NCBI RefSeq assembly: GCF_036971445.1
Contig: NW_027211918.1
Location: 1-64,000 of the forward strand
DNA: 64,000 bases
Direction: 5' to 3'
Origin: Narcine bancroftii
Taxonomy: Eukaryota
Shown: positions 871 through 15,900 of the stretch, piece by piece
Layout: the number at the start of each line of letters is the position of its first letter
How positions within the stretch are numbered: the stretch's first letter is position 1
Notes under the pieces: model-generated
What the model was told of the DNA's origin: nothing
Databases searched by the model: none
The model's input: the letters and a program-made list of their open reading frames with translations, nothing else
Made by a program: the position numbers and the translations under genes

Positions 871-1256
871 TTATGCACAAGAGGTAAAACTATCAGTGAG
901 AACAAGTGAGACATTGACCGAGGTGGGTTTGCTGTGAGATTTATTGATGCTTCTGAACAGATTAGTTGTGAGCGACTCATGTCCCACCACGCAGGAGAAA
1001 GTGGTGCCATGATCCCACTCCTCTGGAGAAACCTTCAACTGACTGGTCATCATGTTCCAGCCACTTCTGGGGTCCTCGGTCACTGGCTGGTTCACGTAGC
1101 CAGTCTTCAGAAGGATGTCATTGGCCATCCAGGCCACGTAGATGTCTGCAGGAGAGAACTTCTTGACTAGGCACATCAGGGTCGCAGACTGATCGCCCTC
1201 TAACTCTTCTGATGAAGGGGGGAGGAGGAAGATGTGAGGAGAAGTCACAACTCCAC
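871..1256 (-). CDS. IgW: CH6 constant exon plus long-form secretory tailpiece
   Basis: Acceptor TTCTGTTCCCAG; ...FLLPPSSEEL...ATLMCLVKKFSP...W...FSCVVGHE... then KPTSVNVSLVLTDSFTSCA* (NVS sequon, penultimate Cys as in mu/IgW/IgNAR tails). Confidence 0.95.
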
Positions 1257-2350
1257 CTGGGAACAGAACGAACCTCAGTTAGGTTGCATCTTTCAATAAT
1301 TCTGTGCTGAACCCACACATTGTGCTTTCAAACCAACATGGGCAACTTCTACATCTTGAGGGATTTCACTTTACCTGACACTGGAGCCTTTTCCCTTTCT
1401 ACTCATTGTTGGGATGTGCAGGGTGGAAGCCTTGACTCGGACACATTTTAAAGCTTCCAGAGAGGTTTGTCTGTTCCGTTTAATCAGTGGAAGCCACTGA
1501 TCACAGAGACTCCACAGAAAGTGGGTCAGACCATGGACTTGACTCATCCTGTGCTGTTTGGTCCATCTCCCCCTCTGCTTCAATGATCTGCTGAACTTCA
1601 GTCTGTGCCTCAGCCTCCCTGCCCTTCCACCCACTGCCTTGACTCAGTCTCTCCCTCAGGGTTTGAAAGCTGCAGATCCTTCTCCCTCGACATCATCACA
1701 GGAACTCACCCCGCAGCTGAGTTTGGTTTTGGATGAGGCTGCTGTGGTGATTTGGGGTCTTACTGGTTTTCTCTGGAGGCTTCAGTCTTCCTTTGCTCCT
1801 TAATATTCTCTGACCAACATGAGAAGACCTTCTCCAAGGCAAAGAAGAATGTGGGGAGTCTCATGGAAACTATAACATTCTGAACTGATTGGACAGAATC
1901 GATACTGGAAGAATGTTCCTGATGGCGGCAGAATCCAGGAACAAGGGTGACAAGCTGAAGATGGTGTGAGAGGAGGAATGATAGAAAGGAGAATGGTGAA
2001 CCTAGGGAATTCTCTGCCACAAAGAGCAGTTGAAGCCCAGTGAGTAAATATATCCAAAGATGAGCTGGATATTGTTCCAAGGGTAAAAGTTCAAGGGGCA
2101 TGGAGAGAAGTCAGGAATAGGGGGCGCAATTTGAATAATCTGCTTTGATCATATTGAATGGCTAAGCAGCAATGAAGGATTGAATGGCCTACTTCTACTC
2201 TCTAATTTTCCCTGAGACAACCACACTGCTGAATGGTGACATATGCTTTGCTTCTGTACATTACACAATGTAAATGACAAAACCTCAGTATTTATTATCA
2301 TTCCTCTACTTGCTTAGATCAGAATCACACCAAGCTCTCTCTTCACGTAC

Positions 2351-2671
2351 CTGTGGCCTTCTTAATGGACCTCTTCTCCGGTGTTGGCAAACTCTTGTCC
2401 TCCACCACGCACGAGTACTCAGTTCCTATCTCCCACTCCGCAGCGGGCACCGTCAGTCTGCTGATAATTATGTCTTCACCTCCGTTCCTATTTGGACCCT
2501 GAGTTCTCACCCCATCTTTTCTCTCACTTCCATCCACTTGCCAGGTTACCCTGAATCCCTCTAAATCACCATGGACCACCTCACATAGAATGGTCGCCGT
2601 CCTGTTCATCCAGATCTCTTCGAAGGAAGGTTTTCTTAAAGTGACTGAGGGGCTGGTATCTGAACAGTCAG
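2351..2671 (-). CDS. IgW: CH5 constant exon
   Basis: Acceptor TTTCTCCCAG; ADCSDTSPSVTLRKPSFEEIW...LC...W...SRLTV...W...YSC; donor G|GTACGT; 321 nt. Confidence 0.93.
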
Positions 2672-3706
2672 CTGGGAGAAATGTCATAATTATTATTTTG
2701 TAGAGGCTCACTGGAGGCTTAATCGAACCAGCTCAAGAGGTTCCGAGTGATGTCATGATATTATTTGGAACGTACGGTGTTTTCAAAATCTGCGCGTGAC
2801 TGTTTGAGTAAAAGACTTTTACTGAACTTCAACTGGACTATGTCTGATCATTTTCTCATTCTTCAATACACGCTGTAAACCAGTTGCTACAATTTCACCA
2901 TTCCCCAAAGGATAGGGCATCACTGGTGAGACCAACATTTCATATTCATCTCCAGCAAATCATTCGTTGGTCGCATCAGATCAGTCGAGACTTATCTACA
3001 TTGATGGAGGAATGAGATTTCCCCAATTGAGCAGACAGGGTAAACCCTTGTCAGGAATATCAATGAACAAATTTGTCTCTGATGTAAGTTGGACAGTTTC
3101 AAGGACACTTAAGCTGTTCCCAGCCACTTATTAAAACAAAAACAGAAAATTCCAAACAATTCAGGCTGCACCTGTGCAGAGGGAAGCAGAGCTAATATTT
3201 TAATTCAGAAATATTCCAGCAATTTTCCTTGACATTTTTAAAATTCAAGCAGCATCAGAAATAGTTGATCTTTATTACAACTGTTAAAATGCATTTGGCC
3301 TCCATGAAGTGTAACTGAAATCTCTTGCTGCTTTCTCAGAACGTTTTGTGTTCAAGCCGTCCTGCAGAGGCTTCCACATTGCCCAGGCTAACTCTTCCCA
3401 TGCTGGAGCAGAGTGCTGTCCTGATGCAGATTCAGTCACGGCTGAGGCCATGACCAGAGGCCCAGATTACATTCAAAGACAGAAGGAGAGACCATTTGGA
3501 AGAGGGATATCCGGGATCTCCAGGGCACCTGGCCAGTGAAATAGTTTGTATTGTGCTCAAGTTATGAAAGCAATTATTTCTCTGGCCAAGATTCTGGAGG
3601 ATCCGTTCAGTCATCAAACCATAACAGGTCTGCACCATGTTTCTGTCTGGCACAGTTTATAGCAAAAAGCAAACAATGTCAACAATGGAGTGGGTCGGGA
3701 CCTTAC

Positions 3707-4024
3707 CTTGGAGGTTCCTCGCTTCCTTTGTGATGCTGGTGTTAGAGGAGGGATGAGACACCGTGCAGCTGAAGATTGAGCCTGTCTTCCACTCCTGTGA
3801 ACTCACCGTCAGGAAGTGGCTGGCACTGAAAGTCCCATCCTGCTCCAGAGCAGTCTGTGTCCTGCTGGTGTTGGAGGAGATCAGGGAGTGACCTTTCTTC
3901 CAGGTGACATCAATGTGGTCTGGGTAGAATCCCGAGACCACACACTCGAGGGTAGCCACATTCCTATGCTTAGCCTCTTCGTATGGTGGAGGCAGCAGTC
4001 TGGCCACAGGAGGTTTTGTCTCAA
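3707..4024 (-). CDS. IgW: CH4 constant exon
   Basis: Acceptor TTCTTCTGTTCCAG after an 85-nt intron; VETKPPVARLLPPP...LECVVSGFYPDHIDVTW...FSCTVSH; donor G|GTAAGG; 318 nt. Confidence 0.94.
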
Positions 4025-4109
4025 CTGGAACAGAAGAACAAAGAAAACATTGGACTCTTTCTCACATCATCACTGATGTTTGTTATTTAATCAGTGATTT
4101 CTTACCCAC

Positions 4110-4409
4110 CTTTGGTGCTTTTTGTCCATGCTGAGACTGGTGAGGATAAATGATCTTGGGCAGAACACATGTACTCCATCCCGCTGGACCACTCCTCCAC
4201 GCTGGTCTGGAGTCGGCTGATTATTGTGTTTTGGAACCCTTTCCTTCTGGGCTGTTGGGTCACAGCTGCATCACTTTTATCCTCTCCGTTCACCTCCCAG
4301 GAGATGTGGACTTTCTTCGGATCAGCAGAGATGACTGTGCACACCAGAGTAGCTGTTTTGTTGATCCATATCTCTTGAATGGAGGGATTTTGAATTGAGA
4401 CAAACAATT
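4110..4409 (-). CDS. IgW: CH3 constant exon
   Basis: Acceptor CCACAG; ELFVSIQNPSIQEIWINKTATLVC...W...SRLQTSVEEW...YMC; phase-1 donor GTGGGT; 300 nt. Confidence 0.92.
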
Positions 4410-5989
4410 CTGTGGATCAGAAAGAGGAGATGTCAGAATTGTAGTGGAAACTTTTCTCTTTGTGATGGAAAGTCAAAGCAGATCCAAGTGCATTGTGGCA
4501 GTGAACTGGAAACAAGGTAACAGAAACTCGCAAGGGTGGAAAGGTGTGCTGCAAATGTTGGCTGGGAAAATAAACTCAGTATAAAGGACCTGCCAAATGG
4601 GTTTAATCGCCTTCCCCACAACTGTGACCACAAGGTTCAGAGCAGGGACTCGATGGGAGGTGAGAGGCTGAACAACATTTTGATGCTGCAAAGCCAGTCA
4701 CAGGTTTGTGGGAAGCCAGAAGAGAGGGAAGTGGGCATATTTCTCATCAGAGACAATTCAATATCTTCTTCACATGGAGCCCCTGTGGAATGAGTTACCT
4801 CCACTGAGCATTGTGAATCAATGAGAATCCTTTTCTCTGGACTGAGGCTGGGATTCCCTCAGTTTGTATTCAGTTAATAAATGCATCCTGGAATAAAACA
4901 CTCTCTTTGGTGGTGGGGATTATAAAGTATTTGTGCTGTTATAAAACCCATCTGGTCCACTGTTGTTCATCACCAGAAGAAATCTGTCATCTATACCTGG
5001 TCTGGTCGCATGTGACTCCAGACCTGCAGTTACATGGCCAAGCCCTGGTCCAGCAAAGCCCTCAGTTAAAGAGCGATCAATGAGGGACATGAAATTGTGA
5101 ATGAATATGATTCCTCTGTGACGGAGCTTTGGGGGCACCTGACATCTGGGTTTGAATCAGTTTTCTGTGACTGTGCTCCAGTGAAGTGGTGCGGTGTTTT
5201 AACATTTGAAAATATCTATTTGAAAGAAAGATGTGGACAACTTACTCTCCAGCAACAACAGAGCAAACCATAAATCTGGAGAATAACAGAAATCTCCCTC
5301 ATGCTGCACTTTGGGAAATTTTTGGAACAGATGTAGTTTCCCCGTTTCATTTTAGAATCGTTTGTTTCCTGTTTTCTGCAAAGCCACTGGTCTCCTCAAG
5401 CACCATCGTCACATCAGTTAAACTGCAGTTCACCATTTACACAATCAGTCACTTTGGTCCACGAGGGCTGTGTTTGCTCTCAAACACTTTTCAAGGAGGG
5501 TGATTATGTTTGTGTCAGGGTTGAAACCTTCACGACATTCAGCGTAAATTCCTCTATGGTATTTAGAGCAGATATAATGAACTCTGTGCCTGTCTGGCAG
5601 GACACATTTCATTTGATGACATATGATGTTATCTCTTGCTCAACCCATCTTTCTTTTAACAAGTGTTGAGCAATTTAAAAACATATGACAGGTACCTGGT
5701 GTTAGTCCAGATAAGATTTCTCGCAGTGTGTGGTCTGAAGTTTGTAAAGTGAGGTGTGTGGTGTCAGGGTTATTTCTTTCAGAATATTGGTTTAATCAGT
5801 ACAGTGATGTTGTTGAACGTTTGTTTGTTGTTCAGTGCCATCCCATATCAATGACAAAATCCAATGCTCAGCCATCTCTGGTGAGAGGCAGTTCCCCCTC
5901 ATAAGTCCTCACAGTGTCAAGATAGCTTTCCTTTTTGCAAAGTGCTGATATTATTCTATTAACCTTTGGGTGATTACACCCACACACAC

Positions 5990-6287
5990 CCTTCAGTGGC
6001 ATTCCTTGTGATCACTGAGTTTCTCTCTTGGACTGAGTTCAGTGTCCAGGAAGTGAGTGAACAAAATGCTTCCAATGTTTGCTGTCCATCCCTTTCACAC
6101 CAAGCGCGTGAGTTTGGTCAGGTCACTGGTGGGGTCCTGTGGTTTGTCTCACTGATTTGTCACAGGCCCCTTTTCTTACAGGTTGTCACATTCTGTAACT
6201 GAGCCAAGGTGACATTTCACCCCTGTGTATCTTCAGCACCTCCTCCCCAAGCCACTGGCTGAGATGTAGTTTCTGGTTCTTGCTGAC
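5990..6287 (-). pseudogene. Possible decayed extra CH exon
   Basis: Strong acceptor CACCTTCTTTCCAG and ~300-nt length. Fragments across frames with stops: QQEPE, EEVLK, NVTLA, NVTTCKK, RLV*KGW..IGSIL. Confidence 0.33.
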
Positions 6288-6515
6288 CTGGAAAGAAGGT
6301 GGTGAAGGGAAGTGGGGCTGGGATCTGAATCACACTGAACCAGCAATGTCCACAAATGAATGAGTGTACATGTGAGGTGTGGAGTGGGGATGGGGCAGCT
6401 TGAATTGATGCCTTGTTCTCTGCTGCACTTTGATCTCAGTGGATATGGTGGGATAGATTTGAATCCAGAAAATGGATTGTAATAAAATTCACTGACAAAT
6501 TCCACATGCAGCCAA

Positions 6516-6643
6516 TCACTTTATTTGACACTTTCCTTGTGAACAATGATACGGTCGGGTGGTACCATCAGAGAATGTCACATTGACATTAGTCTGCTGG
6601 AAGAATATCGGCACACACGTCGAACAGCTGGGACAGTTTTTAT
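6516..6643 (-). CDS. IgW: Short-form (2-CH) secretory tail exon, Cys-rich
   Basis: Acceptor CTTCCATTTTCAG in phase 1 gives DKNCPSCSTCVPIFFQQTNVNVTFSDGTTRPYHCSQGKCQIK* (5 Cys, NVT sequon). AATAAA overlaps the last codons (6525-6520). Position and character match the known IgW/IgX short tail. Confidence 0.88.
6520..6525 (-). terminator. Candidate polyadenylation signal of short secreted form
   Basis: AATAAA inside CAA ATA AAG TGA at the end of the short-tail exon. Confidence 0.55.
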
Positions 6644-7277
6644 CTGAAAATGGAAGATGCATAGATTTAACCATTAGATATTCTCTCCTCTACTGGCTGC
6701 ACTGAGAAAGGAAGTAGCTCCACACAGTCCCGACCTCTATTCTCTGCATTCACCATCTTTTAGGGATGAGATAATGAAAACCAATGATGACCTGTTGTCC
6801 CAAGTTCTAATCCCAGTGTTTCTGAGGGGTTGGCCAACAGAATAATAATCCATCTTTGTGAGTGGATGACGTGCCAGGGAGATTCCTGGGATACTGTGGA
6901 GATAGACTGTGGAGATTCATTCACTCGGCTGGAGCTATTTTTCCAGAAACTGAGACTGCAAAGTGAAAAGTGAAGGTGGAGATCTTCTCCACATGGTCTA
7001 TCGGTTGGGACACATCTTGCTTGATGTCCCATTTCCCTTTCACTCCACACAGTAACCACAAGAATTATGTGGGAGTAAGTGCACAGGAGACTTAAACTTT
7101 CACTTTTGCTGTACAACAGATTGGGTTAAAATTAGTGACTGAAAGGGTTGGATTGAAATGTAGAGGGAATAAATATCACACCTCACTCAACAGGACTCCC
7201 ATCGGGGACATGAATTGAGTGGAGGTCAGCTAGTTGAATACTGTAAGTAAATTAATTCTCCTTCAGACACCACTCAC

Positions 7278-7580
7278 CCCCCTGATATCTCATGACGATC
7301 TTCTCACTGAAGCTGGAAGGTTTATGGGTCACTTCACAAGAATATTCTTGTTCGCTGGTCCATTCATCCACAGACAAGGTCAGGTAGGCAACAGTTTCAA
7401 ATCCACCATCAGTTTTCATGGAAGGGAGAAGAGTGCCCACTTGCTCTGATTTGCCTTTTTTCCAGGTCACCTGAATCTTGTCAGGTGAGAATCCAGATAT
7501 CACACAGCCTAGGATAGCAGTTGTTTGATTGCTGAGAACCTCCGGGGATGGAACAAGAGGCATGAGCTTTGGAGATTGAG
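7278..7580 (-). CDS. IgW: CH2 constant exon
   Basis: Acceptor TTTTACAG; ...LGCVISGFSPDKIQVTW...YLTLSVDEW...YSCEVTH...; donor G|GTGAGT; 303 nt. Confidence 0.93.
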
Positions 7581-8492
7581 CTGTAAAACAATGCAATGTT
7601 AATGCAATATTACTGATGGCATAACTGGCCACAGTGTAGGTGGACTCCATTCCCCAACTCCATTTGCAAATGCCCCAACAGCAGCCCACTCTACAAATCT
7701 GATCATTACAGATGACCTGTCGTAGGATGGATCCTATCGTGAGATGTTGGGTAGAGCTGTGATTGGGAGATCAAGGTGTACAACACAGGCCTCCCCAGCA
7801 TTATGTCCCACACTGCAGTGTTGAGGGGGTTGAACGAGGAAGTGGCCTGTGTGGGCAGACTATTGGTGATCTGATTGTTTGGTGGAATGGCTGACTCCAG
7901 ATCCTGTGGATATGAGCAGATGGGGTAGAACAGGACATTAGGGAAGCACAATATTGAGGACAATCAAAAAGAAGAACAGATGGACAAGAGGAAATTATTT
8001 GGTTTTAATGGCAATGATTTGCTCACATCTTAGAGGTGATGGATAAAGGTGAGTGGGGGATGTTGATTCTTCAGTTCCCTTCACAAGGAGTGTGAGTTTT
8101 GCAGGAACAGTGACTAATGTCTGTCTGGTTCCGTGTGGAGGAGCTAATCTGGGGGGTGATGCTTGGGCCAGGTGGTGGGGATGGTGCAGAGTCTTCTGAA
8201 ATTAGATAAATGAGTGGATACAATGGAGGCTGTTCAGCACAGATTATTTCCTGTACATTCCACCAAAATTCAGTTTCATTGACTGGAGGAAACTGCCTCA
8301 TTCTCCGTCTATTTCCACCTAATTTCTCTCTGCCTTTTTTGTGCGCTACAGCAGCACTGGCTTGTAGGAATGGAAGAAATGAGTAAAGGAATGAATGGAC
8401 ATCCTTGAACATTTTTTGACAAAGGTTCCTGCTCTAGTTTTATCCCTCGACAGTAATGTAGTTTCAAATAGCAAATCAAATCTCATACTAAC

Positions 8493-8807
8493 TTTCAGCG
8501 AATATTGGTTTTGTGCTTGCTGTCACGAACTCGGTTGACTTGTACCCTGCCTTGCAGTAGTAGATATTGTTGCTTTTCCAATCCGCCGCAGGGACTCGGA
8601 GCAAGCTGCTCATTGTGTACTTTGCATTCTGCCCCAACACTGCTGGATATTTCTTGATTCCGTTGGTGATGTCCCCACTGGCAGTGGACCATTTCTGGAT
8701 GATGCTCTCAGGCTGATAATCCTTGACCAGACACAGGAGGCTGATCACTTGGTCAGATTCTCTGTGGCAGGGAGGGGCGATGAAGACTGACGGTAATGAC
8801 TCAACCT
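8493..8807 (-). CDS. IgW: CH1 constant exon
   Basis: Acceptor TACTTTTCAG. Sequence EVESLPSVFIAPPC...LLCLVKDYQP...W...YTMSSLLRV...W...YYC is a C1-set domain with an extra N-terminal Cys (likely light-chain link). Phase-1 donor GTTAGT; 315 nt. Confidence 0.92.
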
Positions 8808-8992
8808 CTGAAAAGTAAATAAATTCACAGACAGTCCTGTCAATAAATGCATGACCAACAGATGAAGCAAACATCCAATGTCATTTCCAAATTCATTTAC
8901 CGTGTTACAGAAATTGCTTCCCGACTTATGTCTCAACAGAGAGTATATGTCTCTGAGGGAGAAAGGCATGGAATAATCCAAGGAACAGCAAA

Positions 8993-9215
8993 AGGCAGCT
9001 CGGTTAGTGTAGTGGTAGCACAACGCTGTTACACCACCACCAACTGGGGTTCAAATCTGGCGCTGTCTATAAGGAGTTTGTACGTTTTCCCTGTGTGTGT
9101 GTGGGTTTCCTCCAACCATTCAAATTGTACCAGGGTGTGTAGTTCAATTGGGTGTATTTGGGTGGGACAGGCTCGTGGGGTGAAAACACTTGTTACCGTG
9201 CTATATGTCTAAATT
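8993..9215 (+). mobile_element. tRNA-derived SINE (V-SINE/HE1-like)
   Basis: A/B-box-like head (GTTAGTGTAGTGG...GGTTCAAATC) and core GGAGTTTGTACGTT...GTGGGTTTCCTCC; related copies elsewhere in the window. Confidence 0.75.
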
Positions 9216-12200
9216 TAATATTCAAAAATCCCACAGAGGAGATTTAAGCATGGCATATAAGGTGACTCTCTCCTGCAGTACTGAGGCAGTGACCCAATGT
9301 CTGACGTGTGGGATTTTGATCAAAGTTGCACCAAATCTCTCCCTCAAATGCAACGAATGATCCTCAGTGAATGTTTTGCACCAGAATATTGTTCACAGAA
9401 AAAAGGAAGAATTTGGCAGGAAGGTTATTGTATAAATCAGAACATTTCACCGGTAATGTTTTTGCATGGAATGAAGTTACACCGGCCTGAATACCTGAAC
9501 CTCGTCAATATGAAATGTGTGATATGGTGGCACCTGGGGACTCTTCTTCTGAAATTCAATTGAACTGACCCCACAGTGAATTTGTTCCTGCTTTACAGGT
9601 TTTCCAAATGTAGTGGCAGAGGAGCTTGATGAAGCAGGAGGGAATGTTAACATGGATAAGAAAGGAATTTGGAAATCCATTAGCCCAGTCCTGAGTAAAT
9701 GCAGGAATCTTGGAAGGTTGAAAGGTTCACGGAATACACAGCTCCCAGTGTCCAGAGAGGAAATGCACAAGTTAAGAGGCAGAATCTACTTGAAAGATCT
9801 GGTTCTCATTTGACTGGAAAAGTGCAACCAATGATCATGTGGTTACTTCAGCTAATTCCTGGGCATTAATGGGTGCTTAGGTTTTCATTACTTTAATCTT
9901 CTCAATGGCTTGAAAAGTTGTGAATCATTTCTTAATGTTCAGTGTGTGACAAACGACATCTCCTCTATTTCCTCCACATCTGCTCCAACTCCCCCTCTCC
10001 TCTTCTCCACATTTTCCACTTCTCCAGCCTCTCCATTCAACAGATCAACCTTGGTGATTTCTGCCACCTTCAATGAGCTTCCACCACCAGGTGCATCTTC
10101 CCCTTCCCTTCCATTTCAGTGCTCTGAAGGGACTGTTTTCCTTGCACCTCCCTTGGCCACTTTTCATCTCCACATTTCACTCCCCTTACAGCACTCTCCC
10201 TGCAACCACAACACTTGCTTTTTCCCCTCTTTCCTCACTCTCCATGGATTGTTTACAAATAAAGGGATATCCAGCAAGTGGGATTCCAAATGTGAGATAG
10301 GTGGACTTCAGGACCAACATGATCCTGTTAAAACGCAGGATAAAACTGGTAGGAGGAGGGAACCTTGGACAATGAGGGATTTCAAGGATCTGGTCATGGA
10401 AAGACAAGGAGGCACATGGACAAGTTGGGTTGAAGGGTTGGTTTCTGAGCTATGACTCCATGACAGATTTGATAGCAGGAGATTTTGTTTTGGCCCATTG
10501 TCAGAATTATCTGGAGCAGAGTTGTGGGCAAGACTAGTCTTGGCCACCAAAATAGAGTCACAGAGTCAGAGAGGGTTGAAACAGTCCCTTTGGCCCTACT
10601 TGCATGCACTGACCAGAATGTCTGACCCACACTCATCCCACCTGCCTGCTTTTCATGTCTTTCCCTCCAAATTTATCCATGTATCAATCCACATTTTTCT
10701 TAAAACATGCCTCAACTTCCTCTTCTGCCAGCCCATTCCATACAGCCACAACCCTCTGTTTAAAAAAGTTATGCCTCATGTTCTATTGGATATATTCTGC
10801 GAATGAAAGGATAGTGAGCAAACTTTGGCCAAGATTTCAATTAGGTGGAAAATAAAATTACAAAATATTTACTTCACAATAGTTTCCTCCAGTAGATGGA
10901 GGTGAAATGTTGAACTGCAGTGCACAATGGTGCAGGAGAAACTCAGCAGGTCACTCAGCACTGATGGGAAGTAAAGGGTAACCAGCATTTCAGCCCTGAA
11001 CCCTTTGTCAAGGTAATGAACAAAAAGCAGTGTTGATATCTTGCTTCAAAGACATTATTCAACCAGATAGCAATGGCCATGATTCCCAGGTGTCAGCTTC
11101 TCTGAGGATCTGTCCTGGAGCCTCCATTTTGATGCAACCACAAAGAAGGTTCCCCAGTACCTATACAACCCAGACCTGTGTTGTGGTGAAGTGTCACAGG
11201 ACAGGAGGTAGCTGGACCATAACTACACTCAATGGGCTGAATGGCGCTGGTCTGGCCTGCTATTGGGACTCTCCCCACCCTGCCACACAGGAAAAGGTGG
11301 GACCTGGCTGGGCCTCAGGATGTTGGAGACCTGCAGTGAGGAGCACCAAGACCTCAACACCCTATGGTTTCATTTCTGGGTCTCTGGGCCAAGAACACCC
11401 TGACACAAAGCAAACCTGGGTTAGCAAAGCTGTCATGTAACATAACAAATTTAAATGTCTGAAACATAAAAACTGACGTAAATTCTGCCACAAAAGGTAC
11501 TTTGTTTAAAATAAGCGATCTACAGTTCACTGAAACCACAAAATGTACCCCGAAGTCCTTCATCACAAATGATCTTCCCAGATCTGCCGACCGAGAGTTC
11601 CCAGATGAATGGGGACTGTGAGCCTTTACCAGGCCCAACTTGGTAGGGAATCATAGTGTTGGAATCCCTCTTGTAATCCTGGGAAGCCCAGCTCCATGTG
11701 GAGAAGTGTGGTGAATGGCCCACTACATCTCAGTAAACTCTGTACAGTGGGTCTGTGCATGTCCAGGACTAACTGTAGTGCACGTGGCTGCACACTGTTG
11801 GTTCCCTTTGGAACTGCCACTCACTGCCAGCACTGTCTGATCCTGGTGAGCCTCAGCTTCATAAGGAGTCAGTAATTCAAGTAAAGGATGATCTGAGGAA
11901 CCTCACTGCTCTTCATTGATGTCAGCCTTTAGTAATACAGGGATTCCTGGAGCAAAGAACTGGGATCATCTGGATGCCCTCCAGCCAATCAATGTCTGTC
12001 CATTCATCCACAGCAGAGTCATTCTTCAGCAGAGGAGTCCCCAGTGGAGGAGAACTTTGGGAACTCGGGTCCCTCCCGACATCACTAAAGCAGACCGTCT
12101 GGACTTTTTCCTGGTTCCGTTTGTGGGACCAAGCTGCAGACAAGTTGGGTACAATGTGTCTGCACCTCAAGGGCTAGGGAAGAGTTTGGGATGTTTTGGG

Positions 12201-12519
12201 GATATGAAAATCAATGAAAAACACAAATGAACTTTCACCAAATAAAAGGGTCAAAATAAAAATGAAAGAGGCTGGGTGTCAAAAATCTGACTGAAGGACT
12301 TTAATGAAAGGCCATTGATGTAAAATATAATCTCTGTGTCCCTTCCCACAGAGGATCGGAGAGCTGCCAAGTGTCTCTGGTGGAGAGGCACAATGTCAGT
12401 GAGTGGGATTTACATCCAAGGTTCTTCTACATCCCAAGATCTGCAGATTGTAAGTGCAATTTAATAGGGATCAGTGTTCTGAATGATGGTCAGGAGGTGA
12501 ACTTGGAAAACACATCAAA

Positions 12520-13375
12520 TCGTCAGCAGGGAGTCAAGTGTAGAGGGTTAGAAGCTGAGTGGGTCAGCAGGATGCTGGGATGGAGAGGGGAGAAGTGCTT
12601 GGTGGGACAGCAAGGTGCTGGGATGGAGGATGAGGAGCTGGGTGGGGCAGCGGGGTGCTGGGATGGAGAGGGAGGAGCTGGGTGGGACAGCAGGGTGCTG
12701 GGGTGGAGAGGCGAGAAGAGCTGGGTGGGTCAGCAAGATACTGGGGTGGAGAGGCGAGAAGTGCTTGGTGGGACAGCATAGTGCTAGGATAGAGGGGGAG
12801 GAGCTGGGTGGGACAGCAGGGTGTTGGAGTGGATGGGGGAGAGGAGCCCATTGGACAGCAGGATAATGGGGTGGAGGGGAGATTTTCTGGGTGGGACAGC
12901 AGGGTGCTGGTGTGGAGAGGGGAGAGGTGCTGGGATGGAGGGGAGGAGCTGGGTGGGACAGTGGGGTGCTGAGATGGAGGGGAGGAGCTGGGTTGGACAG
13001 CAGGGTGCTGGAGAGGAGAGGTGAGAGGTGCTGGGTGGGTTAGCAGGATGCTGAGATGGAGAGAGAAGTGCTTGGTGGGACACCAGTGTTCTGGGGTGGA
13101 GAGGGGACAGGAGGTGGGAAGTACAGCAGTGTGCTGGGGTGGAGATGGGAGAGGTGCTGGGTGGGTCAGCATAGAGTTAGGATAGAGGGGGGTGGAGCTG
13201 GGTGGGACAGCAGAGTGCTGGACTGAAATGGGTAGAGGAGCCCATTGGATAGCAGGGTGCTGGAGTGGAGGTGACAGGAGCTGGGTGGAACTGCAGGGTG
13301 CTGGGGTGGAGGTGACAGGAGCTGAATGGGACAACAGGGTGCTGGGGTGGAGGTGGGTTTGATAACACAGTGCTG
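12520..13375. repeat. G-rich ~41-bp degenerate tandem repeat in the J-CH1 intron
   Basis: About 20 units, consensus on + near GAGCTGGGTGGGACAGCAGGGTGCTGGGGTGGAGAGGGGAG. Confidence 0.93.
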
Positions 13376-13869
13376 GATTTTCCAAAAGAATAACCTGGGG
13401 ATGTGGTTTGCAGCTCGGTTTGGATTCGGCCTCATCTCAGGAAGTGGAAAGAACATCAGAAAAATTAGGCATTTTGACTCTAAACTCTGAGCCATGTTAA
13501 TACATAATGTGGACTGAAATGCTTAGAGTTCTCGAGCATCTCTAAATATTGCAATTCAAGAGAAAAGAGAAAGCAAATTTGTTCAGCTGAAAAATCACAT
13601 CTCAACCGGGTTCACTGGAACCCTGGGGTTATTCAGACTTTAACCGGATCACACATGTGCAGACCTTTTCCCCAGCCAGGTCTTATCTAACAGTTATAAC
13701 CACGAAAGCAGCCGACAGGAAACCCCGATTCCAGTAACTGGAGAAACCGCCCGTCTCGGGGAGATTCAAATAATTGCTTCAATATCTCACTGGCCTCAGT
13801 GAATCAGCTCAAAGGGCAAATTAATAAAATACAAATGGGAAAGGGTAGAATGGAGAAGTAGGGTCTTAC

Positions 13870-13914
13870 CTGAAGTCACTGTCAGCGAGGTTCCTTTCCC
13901 CCAGTAGTTGAGCG
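13870..13914 (-). CDS. IgW: JH gene segment
   Basis: LNYWGKGTSLTVTS (WGxG motif) followed by phase-1 donor G|GTAAGA. Confidence 0.95.
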
Positions 13915-13953
13915 CACACTGCTCCGTCTCCCGACTCACCCAATACAGTAACT
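13915..13953 (+). promoter_or_regulatory. J 5' recombination signal sequence (23-RSS)
   Basis: Heptamer CACACTG 13915-13921, 23-nt spacer, degenerate nonamer ACAGTAACT 13945-13953. Confidence 0.82.
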
Positions 13954-14320
13954 TCACTGAGCCGTCACCTCCAGTTATCTCAGCCAAGTGTCAGAATGAA
14001 CCCTGTCCGGACCAGGAGCAGCCGCTTCCCAAATCTCTGTCACCAACTCCGTCCTCGTCTCTTCCTGACGAGCGAATAAAAGCAGCATTTTGGGCAGTTT
14101 TCCTGTCTGCGGGCACCGGCTCCCCCGCCCCGCGAGAAACTCAGTCGCCGGCTTTGGGGTGTTTAATTGCCCGCAAATGGACATTTCCTCAAACAGCCGC
14201 AGTCAGGCTTCGGGGATGTGACCCTGGGAAGCAGCAATGCGGGATCCGTGGAGACAGACTGCGCTGCAGACGCTCATTTGTCGGGCGGGACCAGTTTCTG
14301 CTCAGCTCCCTACCACCGTG

Positions 14321-14336
14321 ACACTCCAGCTAGAGT
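14321..14336 (-). other. IgW: DH gene segment (ACTCTAGCTGGAGTGT) flanked by two 12-RSS
   Basis: V-side RSS on +: CACGGTG 14337-14343, 12 nt, TCAACAACC 14356-14364. J-side RSS on -: CACGGTG 14320-14314, 12 nt, GCAGAAACT 14301-14293. Frames read TLAGV, SSWS and one with a stop. Confidence 0.9.
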
Positions 14337-14675
14337 CACGGTGACACACCGCCGTTCAACAACCTCCGTCCCTCGCTCTGTCTCCGACCCCACTCTCCCC
14401 TCAGTTAAACCGTCCCGACACTGTCCCGGCTCACAGATCCCCTCCCATCCACACTGGCCAGGGGGCTGGGGCCGCCGCTTCGTGCTCCTGGTTCCGATAC
14501 TCCAGTCCCATCCGCGGCGCTTGGCTCCGACCTGTTCTGTGATCGATCCCCTCGTCCTTCAACCACTCGCCTCCTATTGCAGGGAGGGCCGACGGGGGCA
14601 CAGCAAGGCCGGGAATCCCTGTGGTGATCACTGCTGCCCTCTCACTCAGCGCCCTGAGGGCAGGCGCTCTCGCTG

Positions 14676-14714
14676 GGTTTTTGCAGCGGTCCAGCCCCGC
14701 TTCCTCTCGCCGTG
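14676..14714 (-). promoter_or_regulatory. V 3' recombination signal sequence (23-RSS)
   Basis: Heptamer CACGGCG (14714-14708), 23-nt spacer, nonamer GCAAAAACC (14684-14676), directly after CAR-GA. Confidence 0.93.
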
Positions 14715-15012
14715 TCTCTCGCACAGTAATAGGTGGCCGTGTCTTCCACTTTCAGCTTGTTCATTTGTAGGTAGAAGTTGTTACTTCGCTTGGAAGCGGT
14801 GAATCTGTCTTGGATTCCAGGCGCGTAATACTTGTAACTTTCGCTATAATACGCCACCAACCATTCCAGCCCTTTCCCGGAGACCTGTTTCACCCAGGAC
14901 ATGTAGTAGCTGCCGAGACTGAACCCTCTAGTTTCACAGGTCAGTCTGTAGGACTCCCCGGGCTTCTTCACCGCTGACGCGACCTGTGTCAGGACGACGT
15001 CGGACCGCACGC
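14715..15012 (-). CDS. IgW: Germline VH gene segment, open frame
   Basis: Acceptor TTTTACTGACAG, then (G)VRS-DVVLTQ...LTC...[12 protein letters not shown]...RFTASK...[10 protein letters not shown]. Canonical Cys/Trp/Cys with full FR2 and CDR2, so a conventional VH rather than VNAR. Confidence 0.96.
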
Positions 15013-15121
15013 CTGTCAGTAAAAGAGAAAAGAGTGGATTTTAATGATCGGTTCAACGGCGAGAGAGTCTCCGAGAAGCAGCCGGGCCCGGCCGGGCTGG
15101 GTGAAGACACGGGGCACCCAC

Positions 15122-15167
15122 CTGCCAGACAGGACAGAAAGAGAAAGAGATAAGGAGCGATCCCCAT
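15122..15167 (-). CDS. IgW: Ig heavy-chain leader exon (L)
   Basis: ATG at 15167 encodes hydrophobic MGIAPYLFLFLSCLA-G. Phase-1 donor GTGGGT at 15121, then a 109-nt intron to the V exon. Confidence 0.92.
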
Positions 15168-15459: not shown

Positions 15460-15900
15460 CTCATATACCCCTGAGAGAGAGGGACTGGTCAGTGTTCAGA
15501 TATCCCCTCAACCCCCAACCCCCAGAGAGAAGGACAGAGAGACACAGGTCAGTGTTCTGATATCCCCTGAAGGAGAGGTACTGAGAGACACAGGTCAGTG
15601 TTCTGATATCCCCCTGAGAGAGATGAACTGAGAGACACTGGACAGTGTTCAGATATGCCCACCACCCCCACCCCCCAGAGAGAAGGACTGAGATACACCA
15701 GTCAGTGTCCGATATCCCCCCGAGAGAGAGGGACTGTGTACAGATCTTCCCGTGAGTGACAAAGAGAGACATCGGTCAGTGTACAGATATCTCCAAGAAA
15801 AAATAAATGAGAGATACCAGTGAGTATATGAATACCTCGCAATAGACAGGAATTGAGAGGCAATGTTCAGTGTACAAATATCCCCCTGAGAGAGGGGAAA
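15460..15900. repeat. ~45-bp degenerate minisatellite upstream of the VH promoter
   Basis: About 9 units of GAGAGACACAGGTCAGTGTTCAGATATCCCCTGAGAGAG-like sequence. Confidence 0.85.

Follow-up and report, generated by a model that had tools for sequence, protein, structure and literature searches.

The 64,000-nucleotide stretch of DNA analysed here (the window) carries on its minus strand an IgW heavy-chain gene of the electric ray Narcine bancroftii, with leader, V, D and J with RSS, six constant domains and a secretory tail (Table 1). The IgW assignment made in the initial annotation was borne out by this constant region, the last domain of which is 74–75% identical to named shark IgW, 55% identical to IgNAR and 100% identical to a protein labelled Narcine bancroftii. 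The J-C intron contains a G-rich tandem array of about 0.8 kb, with approximately 20 units of 39–43 bp. The array begins about 510 nt 3′ of the J donor (13870/13869) and lies 3.7 kb 5′ of CH1.

Splicing and V-D-J joints were read from runs that we guessed to be RNA (X5–X8), the contigs of which hide strand, start sites and levels. In X5 and X6 the window-type cluster shows V-J joints that carry added letters, and its J is joined to CH1. As to an I promoter and a germline transcript through the repeat, no joint from the intron to CH1 was present among the 15 joints listed of 65, in contigs that give neither strand nor starts. Judged from coordinates, the array lies 1.1–1.9 kb from the 5′ end of the V-D-J-joined transcript contigs in six clusters. 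Guessed-RNA contigs are far deeper over the unrearranged D-J interval (13924–14715) than over the J-C intron, which suggests germline transcripts spliced from J, contig depth being a poor measure. Upstream of the V leader, a 45–61-bp repeat in 2–3 copies (15524–15660) is present in all cluster types.

Table 1. Positions of the IgW gene segments, its J-C intron and the intronic repeats in the window
Feature	Position	Strand	Remarks
Minisatellite (array)	12523..13357	+	about 20 units of 39–43 bp; from TRF, hand split and composition
Left border unit of array	12523..12563	+	homologous across all four cluster types
Right border part-unit of array	13331..13357	+	homologous across all four cluster types
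J-CH1 intron, 5062 nt	8808..13869	-	J-CH1 splice seen in the loose ends at 13870
JH segment, WGKG motif	13870..13914	-	RSS heptamer 13915-13921; V-J joints end 13903-13915
D segment, 12-spacer RSS on both sides	14321..14336	-	D letters recur inside V-J joints
VH exon, 23-spacer RSS	14714..15011	-	
Leader exon	15121..15167	-	leader-V splice joint 15011/15121
IgW CH1 exon	8500..8807	-	
IgW CH2-CH6 exons and secretory tail	874..7590	-	approximate CH2-CH6 exon spans 7270-7590, 4110-4400, 3690-4010, 2350-2660, 874-1251
Dispersed repeat in J-C intron, unrelated to array	8991..9230	.	22 matches in 600 kb background

Structure and composition of the array

TRF placed the array at 12541–13353 with periods of 41, 43, 83 and 126. 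Splitting by hand gave the left border unit, 18 inner units and a closing part-unit ending at about 13357; the inner units measure 39–43 bp, except for one of 62 bp. Each unit is made of two related halves of about 21 bp, and the mean pairwise identity of the units is 75%. Head-to-tail units of 10–100 bp with interspersed variants are those of a minisatellite. These results agree with the initial annotation, which had described about 20 units of about 41 bp starting some 500 nt past the JH donor, strongly strand-skewed and with G-runs: the GC skew of the plus strand is +0.6 to +0.7 across the array, and the plus strand of 12520–13375 is 51% G with eight canonical G4 patterns. The same interval holds 10 AGCT (11.7/kb), the number first estimated by eye, 47 WGCW (55/kb) and eight copies of the sequence singled out as recurring, GAGCTGGG. 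WRCY-type sites number 33 and 35 on the two strands. The claim that most units contain a CAGCA...TGCTG pair was overstated; AGCA (15 times) and TGCT (21 times) each recur, but the exact pair occurs in only 7 of about 20 units. The G-rich strand is, as had been pointed out, the template strand of the Ig gene. Because the IgW gene runs on the minus strand, its sense strand across the array contains 51% C and 10% G, with only two GGG and five GG. Protein coding was considered and rejected, a 290-codon stop-free frame on the minus strand being a by-product of the C-rich repeat. A bacterial promoter scan and a PDB search gave nothing informative.

Distribution among IgW clusters

Searches with V, CH1 and CH6 defined ten IgW clusters with a J-C intron. 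BLAST with the array returned 16 rows, 11 of which are IgW J-C introns, the other five being unrelated purine-rich repeats with other units. All matches to two tight unit patterns (8 of 8 and 14 of 14) fell in IgW J-C introns, reversed controls gave 0, and the unit had no match in 600 kb of background; match counts are lower bounds, since words that are very common are passed over in DNA and pattern searches. A common dispersed minisatellite, which had been named at the outset as part of what would refute the proto-switch inference, was rejected together with a transposon origin, as matches to the unit were confined to IgW J-C introns.

Six of the clusters are 98–100% identical over the array and its flanks; two of these are on small contigs and are maybe unplaced duplicates. 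Of the remaining four, one more is on contig C11 and three are on C1, namely two with identities of 63–64% in V and 85% in CH and a broken one. A further, eleventh IgW copy is truncated, with V, J and CH1 absent from the 49.5 kb examined. Between the same two borders we counted about 20 units in six clusters (0.83 kb), 35 in one (1.44 kb), 3–4 in two (0.13–0.2 kb) and 1.5 in one (<0.1 kb). The flanks are homologous (73–99%) and their tree separates the C11 from the C1 clusters as two clades with 100/100 support; presence in all paralogues therefore reflects descent, not repeated recruitment. The paralogue comparison proposed initially thus had a divided outcome: the array is found in paralogous introns, by descent with its flanks, but 3 of the 10 lack the long array, two intact rearranging clusters among them. 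The C1-type arrays are built from their own 44-bp unit variant, which is 98% alike between copies, lacks AGCT and matches the C1-type left border at its end. The distance from J to the array differs between clusters (0.5, 1.8, 1.9 and 7.4 kb) because of insertions. Run X9 (organism B) matches the array flank almost letter for letter at depth 3–7 and is too close to inform conservation.

The C1-type clusters with 3–4 units have intact V, J and CH1, and V-D-J joints with added letters as well as leader splicing were seen for them in all three guessed-RNA runs concerned (X5, X7 and X8), although their V-J joints are sparse in X8, with only one or two joint contigs listed. A long array is therefore unnecessary for rearrangement and splicing. 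At the C1-type J, the consensuses of the loose ends combine the two CH1 types; because both J types map there, these consensuses are uninformative on chimeric J-CH1 transcripts.

The six close clusters (G000:C11:207.66-208.23 Mb, C11:215.6 Mb, C138, C529) are spaced about 142–180 kb apart and differ mainly in V CDRs. Such near identity would fit clusters that were duplicated or homogenised very recently. At 141,820 bp, C138 corresponds in length to roughly one repeat unit and could be an unplaced copy. Further IgW clusters that are broken, together with a lone broken fragment of CH1, were found at L035 and L044 (G000:C1:240.66-240.68 Mb), L037-L039 (C11:207.53 Mb) and L046 (C22:45.59 Mb).

Motif density, genomic background and constraint

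The WGCW density of the array, described as high in the initial annotation, is unusual and lies above every shuffle and background window. Dinucleotide shuffles of the array contain 24.9 ± 3.4 WGCW (0 of 500 reach 47). The background was made up of 60 10-kb stretches, taken from set positions on 10 large contigs (eight near IgW regions); its mean is 18/kb, and none of its 11,040 overlapping 850-bp windows reaches 47 (maximum 40). An IgM intron could not serve for comparison because no IgM cluster was found, and IgL J-C introns were used instead; the peak per 400 bp is 57.5/kb in the array vs 20–32.5/kb in 10 IgL J-C introns. Array-level shuffles count one repeated unit many times, but a tandem repeat is one event. 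At the level of the unit, at least three WGCW occur in 4.1% of 14,580 genomic 41-mers, and unit shuffles give three in 8.6% (dinucleotide) or 0.14% (mononucleotide) of cases; among G- or C-rich genomic 41-mers, 6.9% carry at least two. Enrichment of AGCT is marginal, with 10 vs 5.9 ± 2.0 in dinucleotide shuffles (23 of 500 reach 10), and 5 of the 60 background stretches have at least 10 AGCT per 850 bp. Skew of at least 0.5 occurs in 17 of the 60. The 600 kb of background contain 13 tandem arrays of at least 250 bp, one of them similar to the IgW array: this look-alike (L118:4455-4967, G000:C11:213.0 Mb) has an unrelated 22-bp unit, a length of 513 bp, 46.8 WGCW/kb and a skew of −0.53. An S-like array is thus roughly a one-in-a-hundred coincidence per 5-kb intron, and this one was picked post hoc from many scanned windows. 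An unrelated AT-rich array of 55 26-bp units, not enriched in WGCW, is located in a light-chain J-C intron (L024:6029-7423, G000:C9:204.61 Mb).

No constraint is visible on the array in the tests applied, which are weak. We aligned 44 distinct units of the 50 of normal length in the window array and the 35-unit array, omitting exact duplicates, the border units and four units of excess length. Identity was 0.87 in WGCW columns vs 0.84 in the others (p=0.17; low power, with units that are not independent), and AGCT is absent from 29 of the 44 units. A conserved hairpin was also considered. The fold z-score of −7.65 against 20 shuffles arises because one 5-bp stem recurs, but covariation is absent and the candidate was rejected: 220 cells contain 0 compensatory changes, 16 G-T pairs, 23 broken pairs and 1 gap, and 17 of 44 units keep a perfect stem. 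Among the six close copies, the most diverged has 6 differences in 856 positions of the array vs 13/1490 and 21/1338 in the flanks; the other four copies have one shared difference.

Likeness to switch regions and alternative explanations

Like mammalian S-gamma (S-gamma3/S-gamma1, PMC2442634), the ray array is an intronic tandem repeat 5′ of C exons, with units of similar size (41–43 bp vs 49 bp in mouse), about half G on one strand, GAGCT, GGGGT and TGGGG words, and about two WGCW per unit. In the 49-bp mouse S-gamma3 consensus there are two AGCT, and G makes up about 55% by an eye count of the printed sequence (PMC2442634); the composition of the array is therefore like that of S-gamma read backwards. 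Unlike S-gamma, the ray array is G-rich on the template instead of the non-template strand, measures 0.8–1.4 kb vs up to 10 kb, has about 0.5 AGCT per unit vs 2, and was found with neither a partner region nor a downstream isotype; paired donor and acceptor regions before different C genes were not seen in this assembly, which may be incomplete. Inverted mouse S-gamma supported 8–13% switching vs 30–47% for the upright region and 0% for its deletion (PMC2442634), and mutation of S cores was independent of orientation (PMC5485518). An inverted array can therefore be an AID target and a poor switch substrate.

The array shares with amphibian S-mu (Xenopus and axolotl; PMC2442634, PMC5485518, PMC9911811) its place in the J-C intron and a local WGCW peak without a G-rich sense strand. 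Amphibian S-mu, however, is AGCT-dense and many kb long (about 12 kb for the axolotl S-mu interval), axolotl S regions having been mapped as AGCT or WGCW peaks of 12–15 kb (PMC9911811), and Xenopus S-mu is AT-rich, unlike the ray array. A further system for comparison is the switching between shark clusters (Zhu 2012 and Zhang 2013, via reviews; PMC5192425), where cluster-type IgH loci also lie more than 100 kb apart and AID-linked V-D-J exchange has been reported for IgW (PMC4279169, PMC4588147, PMC8201067, PMC5192425). According to three of these reviews, S regions take no part in this switching (PMC4279169, PMC4588147, PMC8201067). No description of the ray IgW array was found in the literature searched, which covered few subscription papers.

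A switch partner was sought in several ways. The 142-kb contig contains no second array. Exchange among the six 98–100% identical clusters would leave the C region unchanged, and different C regions (85% identity) occur only in clusters with 3–4 units. Queries with IgW V, CH1 and CH6 found no IgM or IgNAR locus in the assembly, nor did a Pfam C1-set profile search (150 of 170 candidates scored); 32 stretches around unexplained C1-set matches presumably encode light-chain-, MHC-, tapasin- or UrIg-like domains. The query P0140, which we take to be a chimaera heavy chain of IgM type (94 of 168 candidates scored), and P0141, taken to be an IgNAR-like domain, both matched IgW CH6 best, at 43–48% and 58–60%, respectively. 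IgW is thus the only heavy chain seen in assembly G000. The absence of IgM and IgNAR from this assembly may reflect a gap in it or a loss in the electric ray like that of coelacanth. Coelacanth is named as the only species without IgM in a review (PMC5192425), and no report of IgM loss in a ray was found in the literature searched (mostly without subscription papers). If borne out by reads, this absence would matter more than the array. Two further groups of Ig-like exons were noted: three C1-type exons near MHC-like genes with an intronic array of 42 33-bp units (L040-L042, G000:C5:184.84-184.86 Mb), which we assume to be possibly an MHC-linked UrIg, and at least 11 divergent C1-set-like exons of no recognised Ig, TCR or MHC type (L049-L054, G000:C1:268.49-268.65 Mb).

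The array is probably a minisatellite that was born at this locus and carried along, unselected, by cluster duplication. GC-rich minisatellites of the VNTR type have a strand-skewed unit of about 40 bp, interspersed variants, higher-order periods and fixed borders. The array is specific to its locus, with shared borders and flanks, interspersed variants and lineage-specific units, and, as in such minisatellites, its copy number is spread between paralogues (1.5, 3–4, about 20 and 35). Unlike them, it has an identical unit number in six 98–100% identical copies and is therefore not hypervariable now, and it ranks within the top few percent for WGCW content. It would have arisen in situ by slippage or unequal exchange; whole-cluster duplication would then have spread it without selection, and the WGCW density would stem from a single chance feature of the founding unit, scaled up by the copy number. 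The tree, which has no outgroup, would accommodate either growth in the C11-type lineage or shrinkage in the C1-type lineage. Since the array is inverted and sister genes that rearrange have only 3–4 units, it is most likely an ordinary local repeat, not an early switch region. Several observations count against neutrality. Only 0.34% of genomic 41-mers combine at least two WGCW with at least 45% G or C, the array is the WGCW peak of its own 142-kb contig, where the next-highest 850-bp window has 32, and the same seed unit was amplified in both the C11 and the C1 lineages. The array is also old, its units being 75% alike, yet it is present in 7 of 7 C11-type clusters, and the shortest version belongs to a pseudogene cluster.

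These last two facts, together with position and locus specificity, speak for a selected proto-switch region, which would be an independently evolved S-gamma-like array kept because it promotes AID breaks and moves V-D-J between IgW clusters, by way of antisense transcription or of targeting independent of R-loops. In birds the sense strand of S-mu arrays is rich in C, which would weaken the argument from orientation; no supporting paper was found in the literature searched. With 2.3 WGCW per unit and 51% G the array is also near the mouse S-gamma3 consensus (PMC2442634). Its sense strand, however, has 10% G and two GGG, and cutting the G content of the sense strand from 46% to 29% diminished both switching and R-loops (PMC4245955). 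The low AGCT density, with none in most units, the short length, the 3–4 units of the only clusters with a different C region, the lack of a second array or of an IgM or IgNAR partner, and the shark clusters reviewed as switching without S regions also speak against selection for switching. We give this reading a slim chance, which it keeps because inverted mouse S-gamma retains about a quarter of its activity. Thus, of the proto-switch inference drawn initially, position, strand, motif density and Ig specificity stood, and signs of constraint, sense-strand G, multi-kb length and a partner region did not appear.

AID may nevertheless strike the array as a bystander, without the array directing switching, because in six clusters it lies so near the 5′ end of the rearranged transcript. 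In mammals hypermutation extends into the J-C intron, and it is from mammals that its reach is taken here. A repeat of neutral origin could then collect AID lesions in B cells and bias exchanges or deletions between clusters, as a weak, inverted and unselected S region. Lesions would gather because the array would sit in the tail of the hypermutated zone, with overlapping hot spots on the two strands and template-strand G4 motifs that would slow the polymerase. The counts of WGCW, two-strand WRCY-type sites and G4 patterns fit this scenario, as do a host gene that is rearranged and spliced and the report that S cores mutate equally well whether inverted or upright (PMC5485518). It is weakened by the other four clusters, in which the array is 1.3–7 kb further away, and by the unchanged C region after any exchange among the six close copies. 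On balance we regard it as unlikely, though less so than selection for switching.

As an intronic regulatory repeat, the array would be a multimerised enhancer or pause element of CACCC/GT boxes that tunes expression of C11-type clusters. GT boxes are read as KLF/Sp sites, and of the 27 GGGTG cores in the array 17 are part of GGGTGGG or GGGGTGG. The J-C intron houses the mammalian intronic enhancer (PMC2435157), but the array contains only one E-box, and clusters with 3–4 units are rearranged and spliced, in contigs that cannot rank expression. Regulation is as improbable here as a selected switch function.

The origin of switch regions is open, and sharks are reported to switch between clusters without S regions. 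The boldest interpretation, that a ray with maybe only IgW independently grew an inverted S-gamma-like AID target in the J-C intron of its main IgW family, at which V-D-J exchanges between clusters break in B cells, is in our judgement very doubtful; if true, it would be a living example of a switch region born from an ordinary minisatellite. The locally born minisatellite favoured above is more likely a switch-region look-alike. Even so, an expressed chondrichthyan IgH intron has S-like motif density, and the versions with 3, 20 and 35 units in one animal are a natural dose series for the attraction of AID outside tetrapods.
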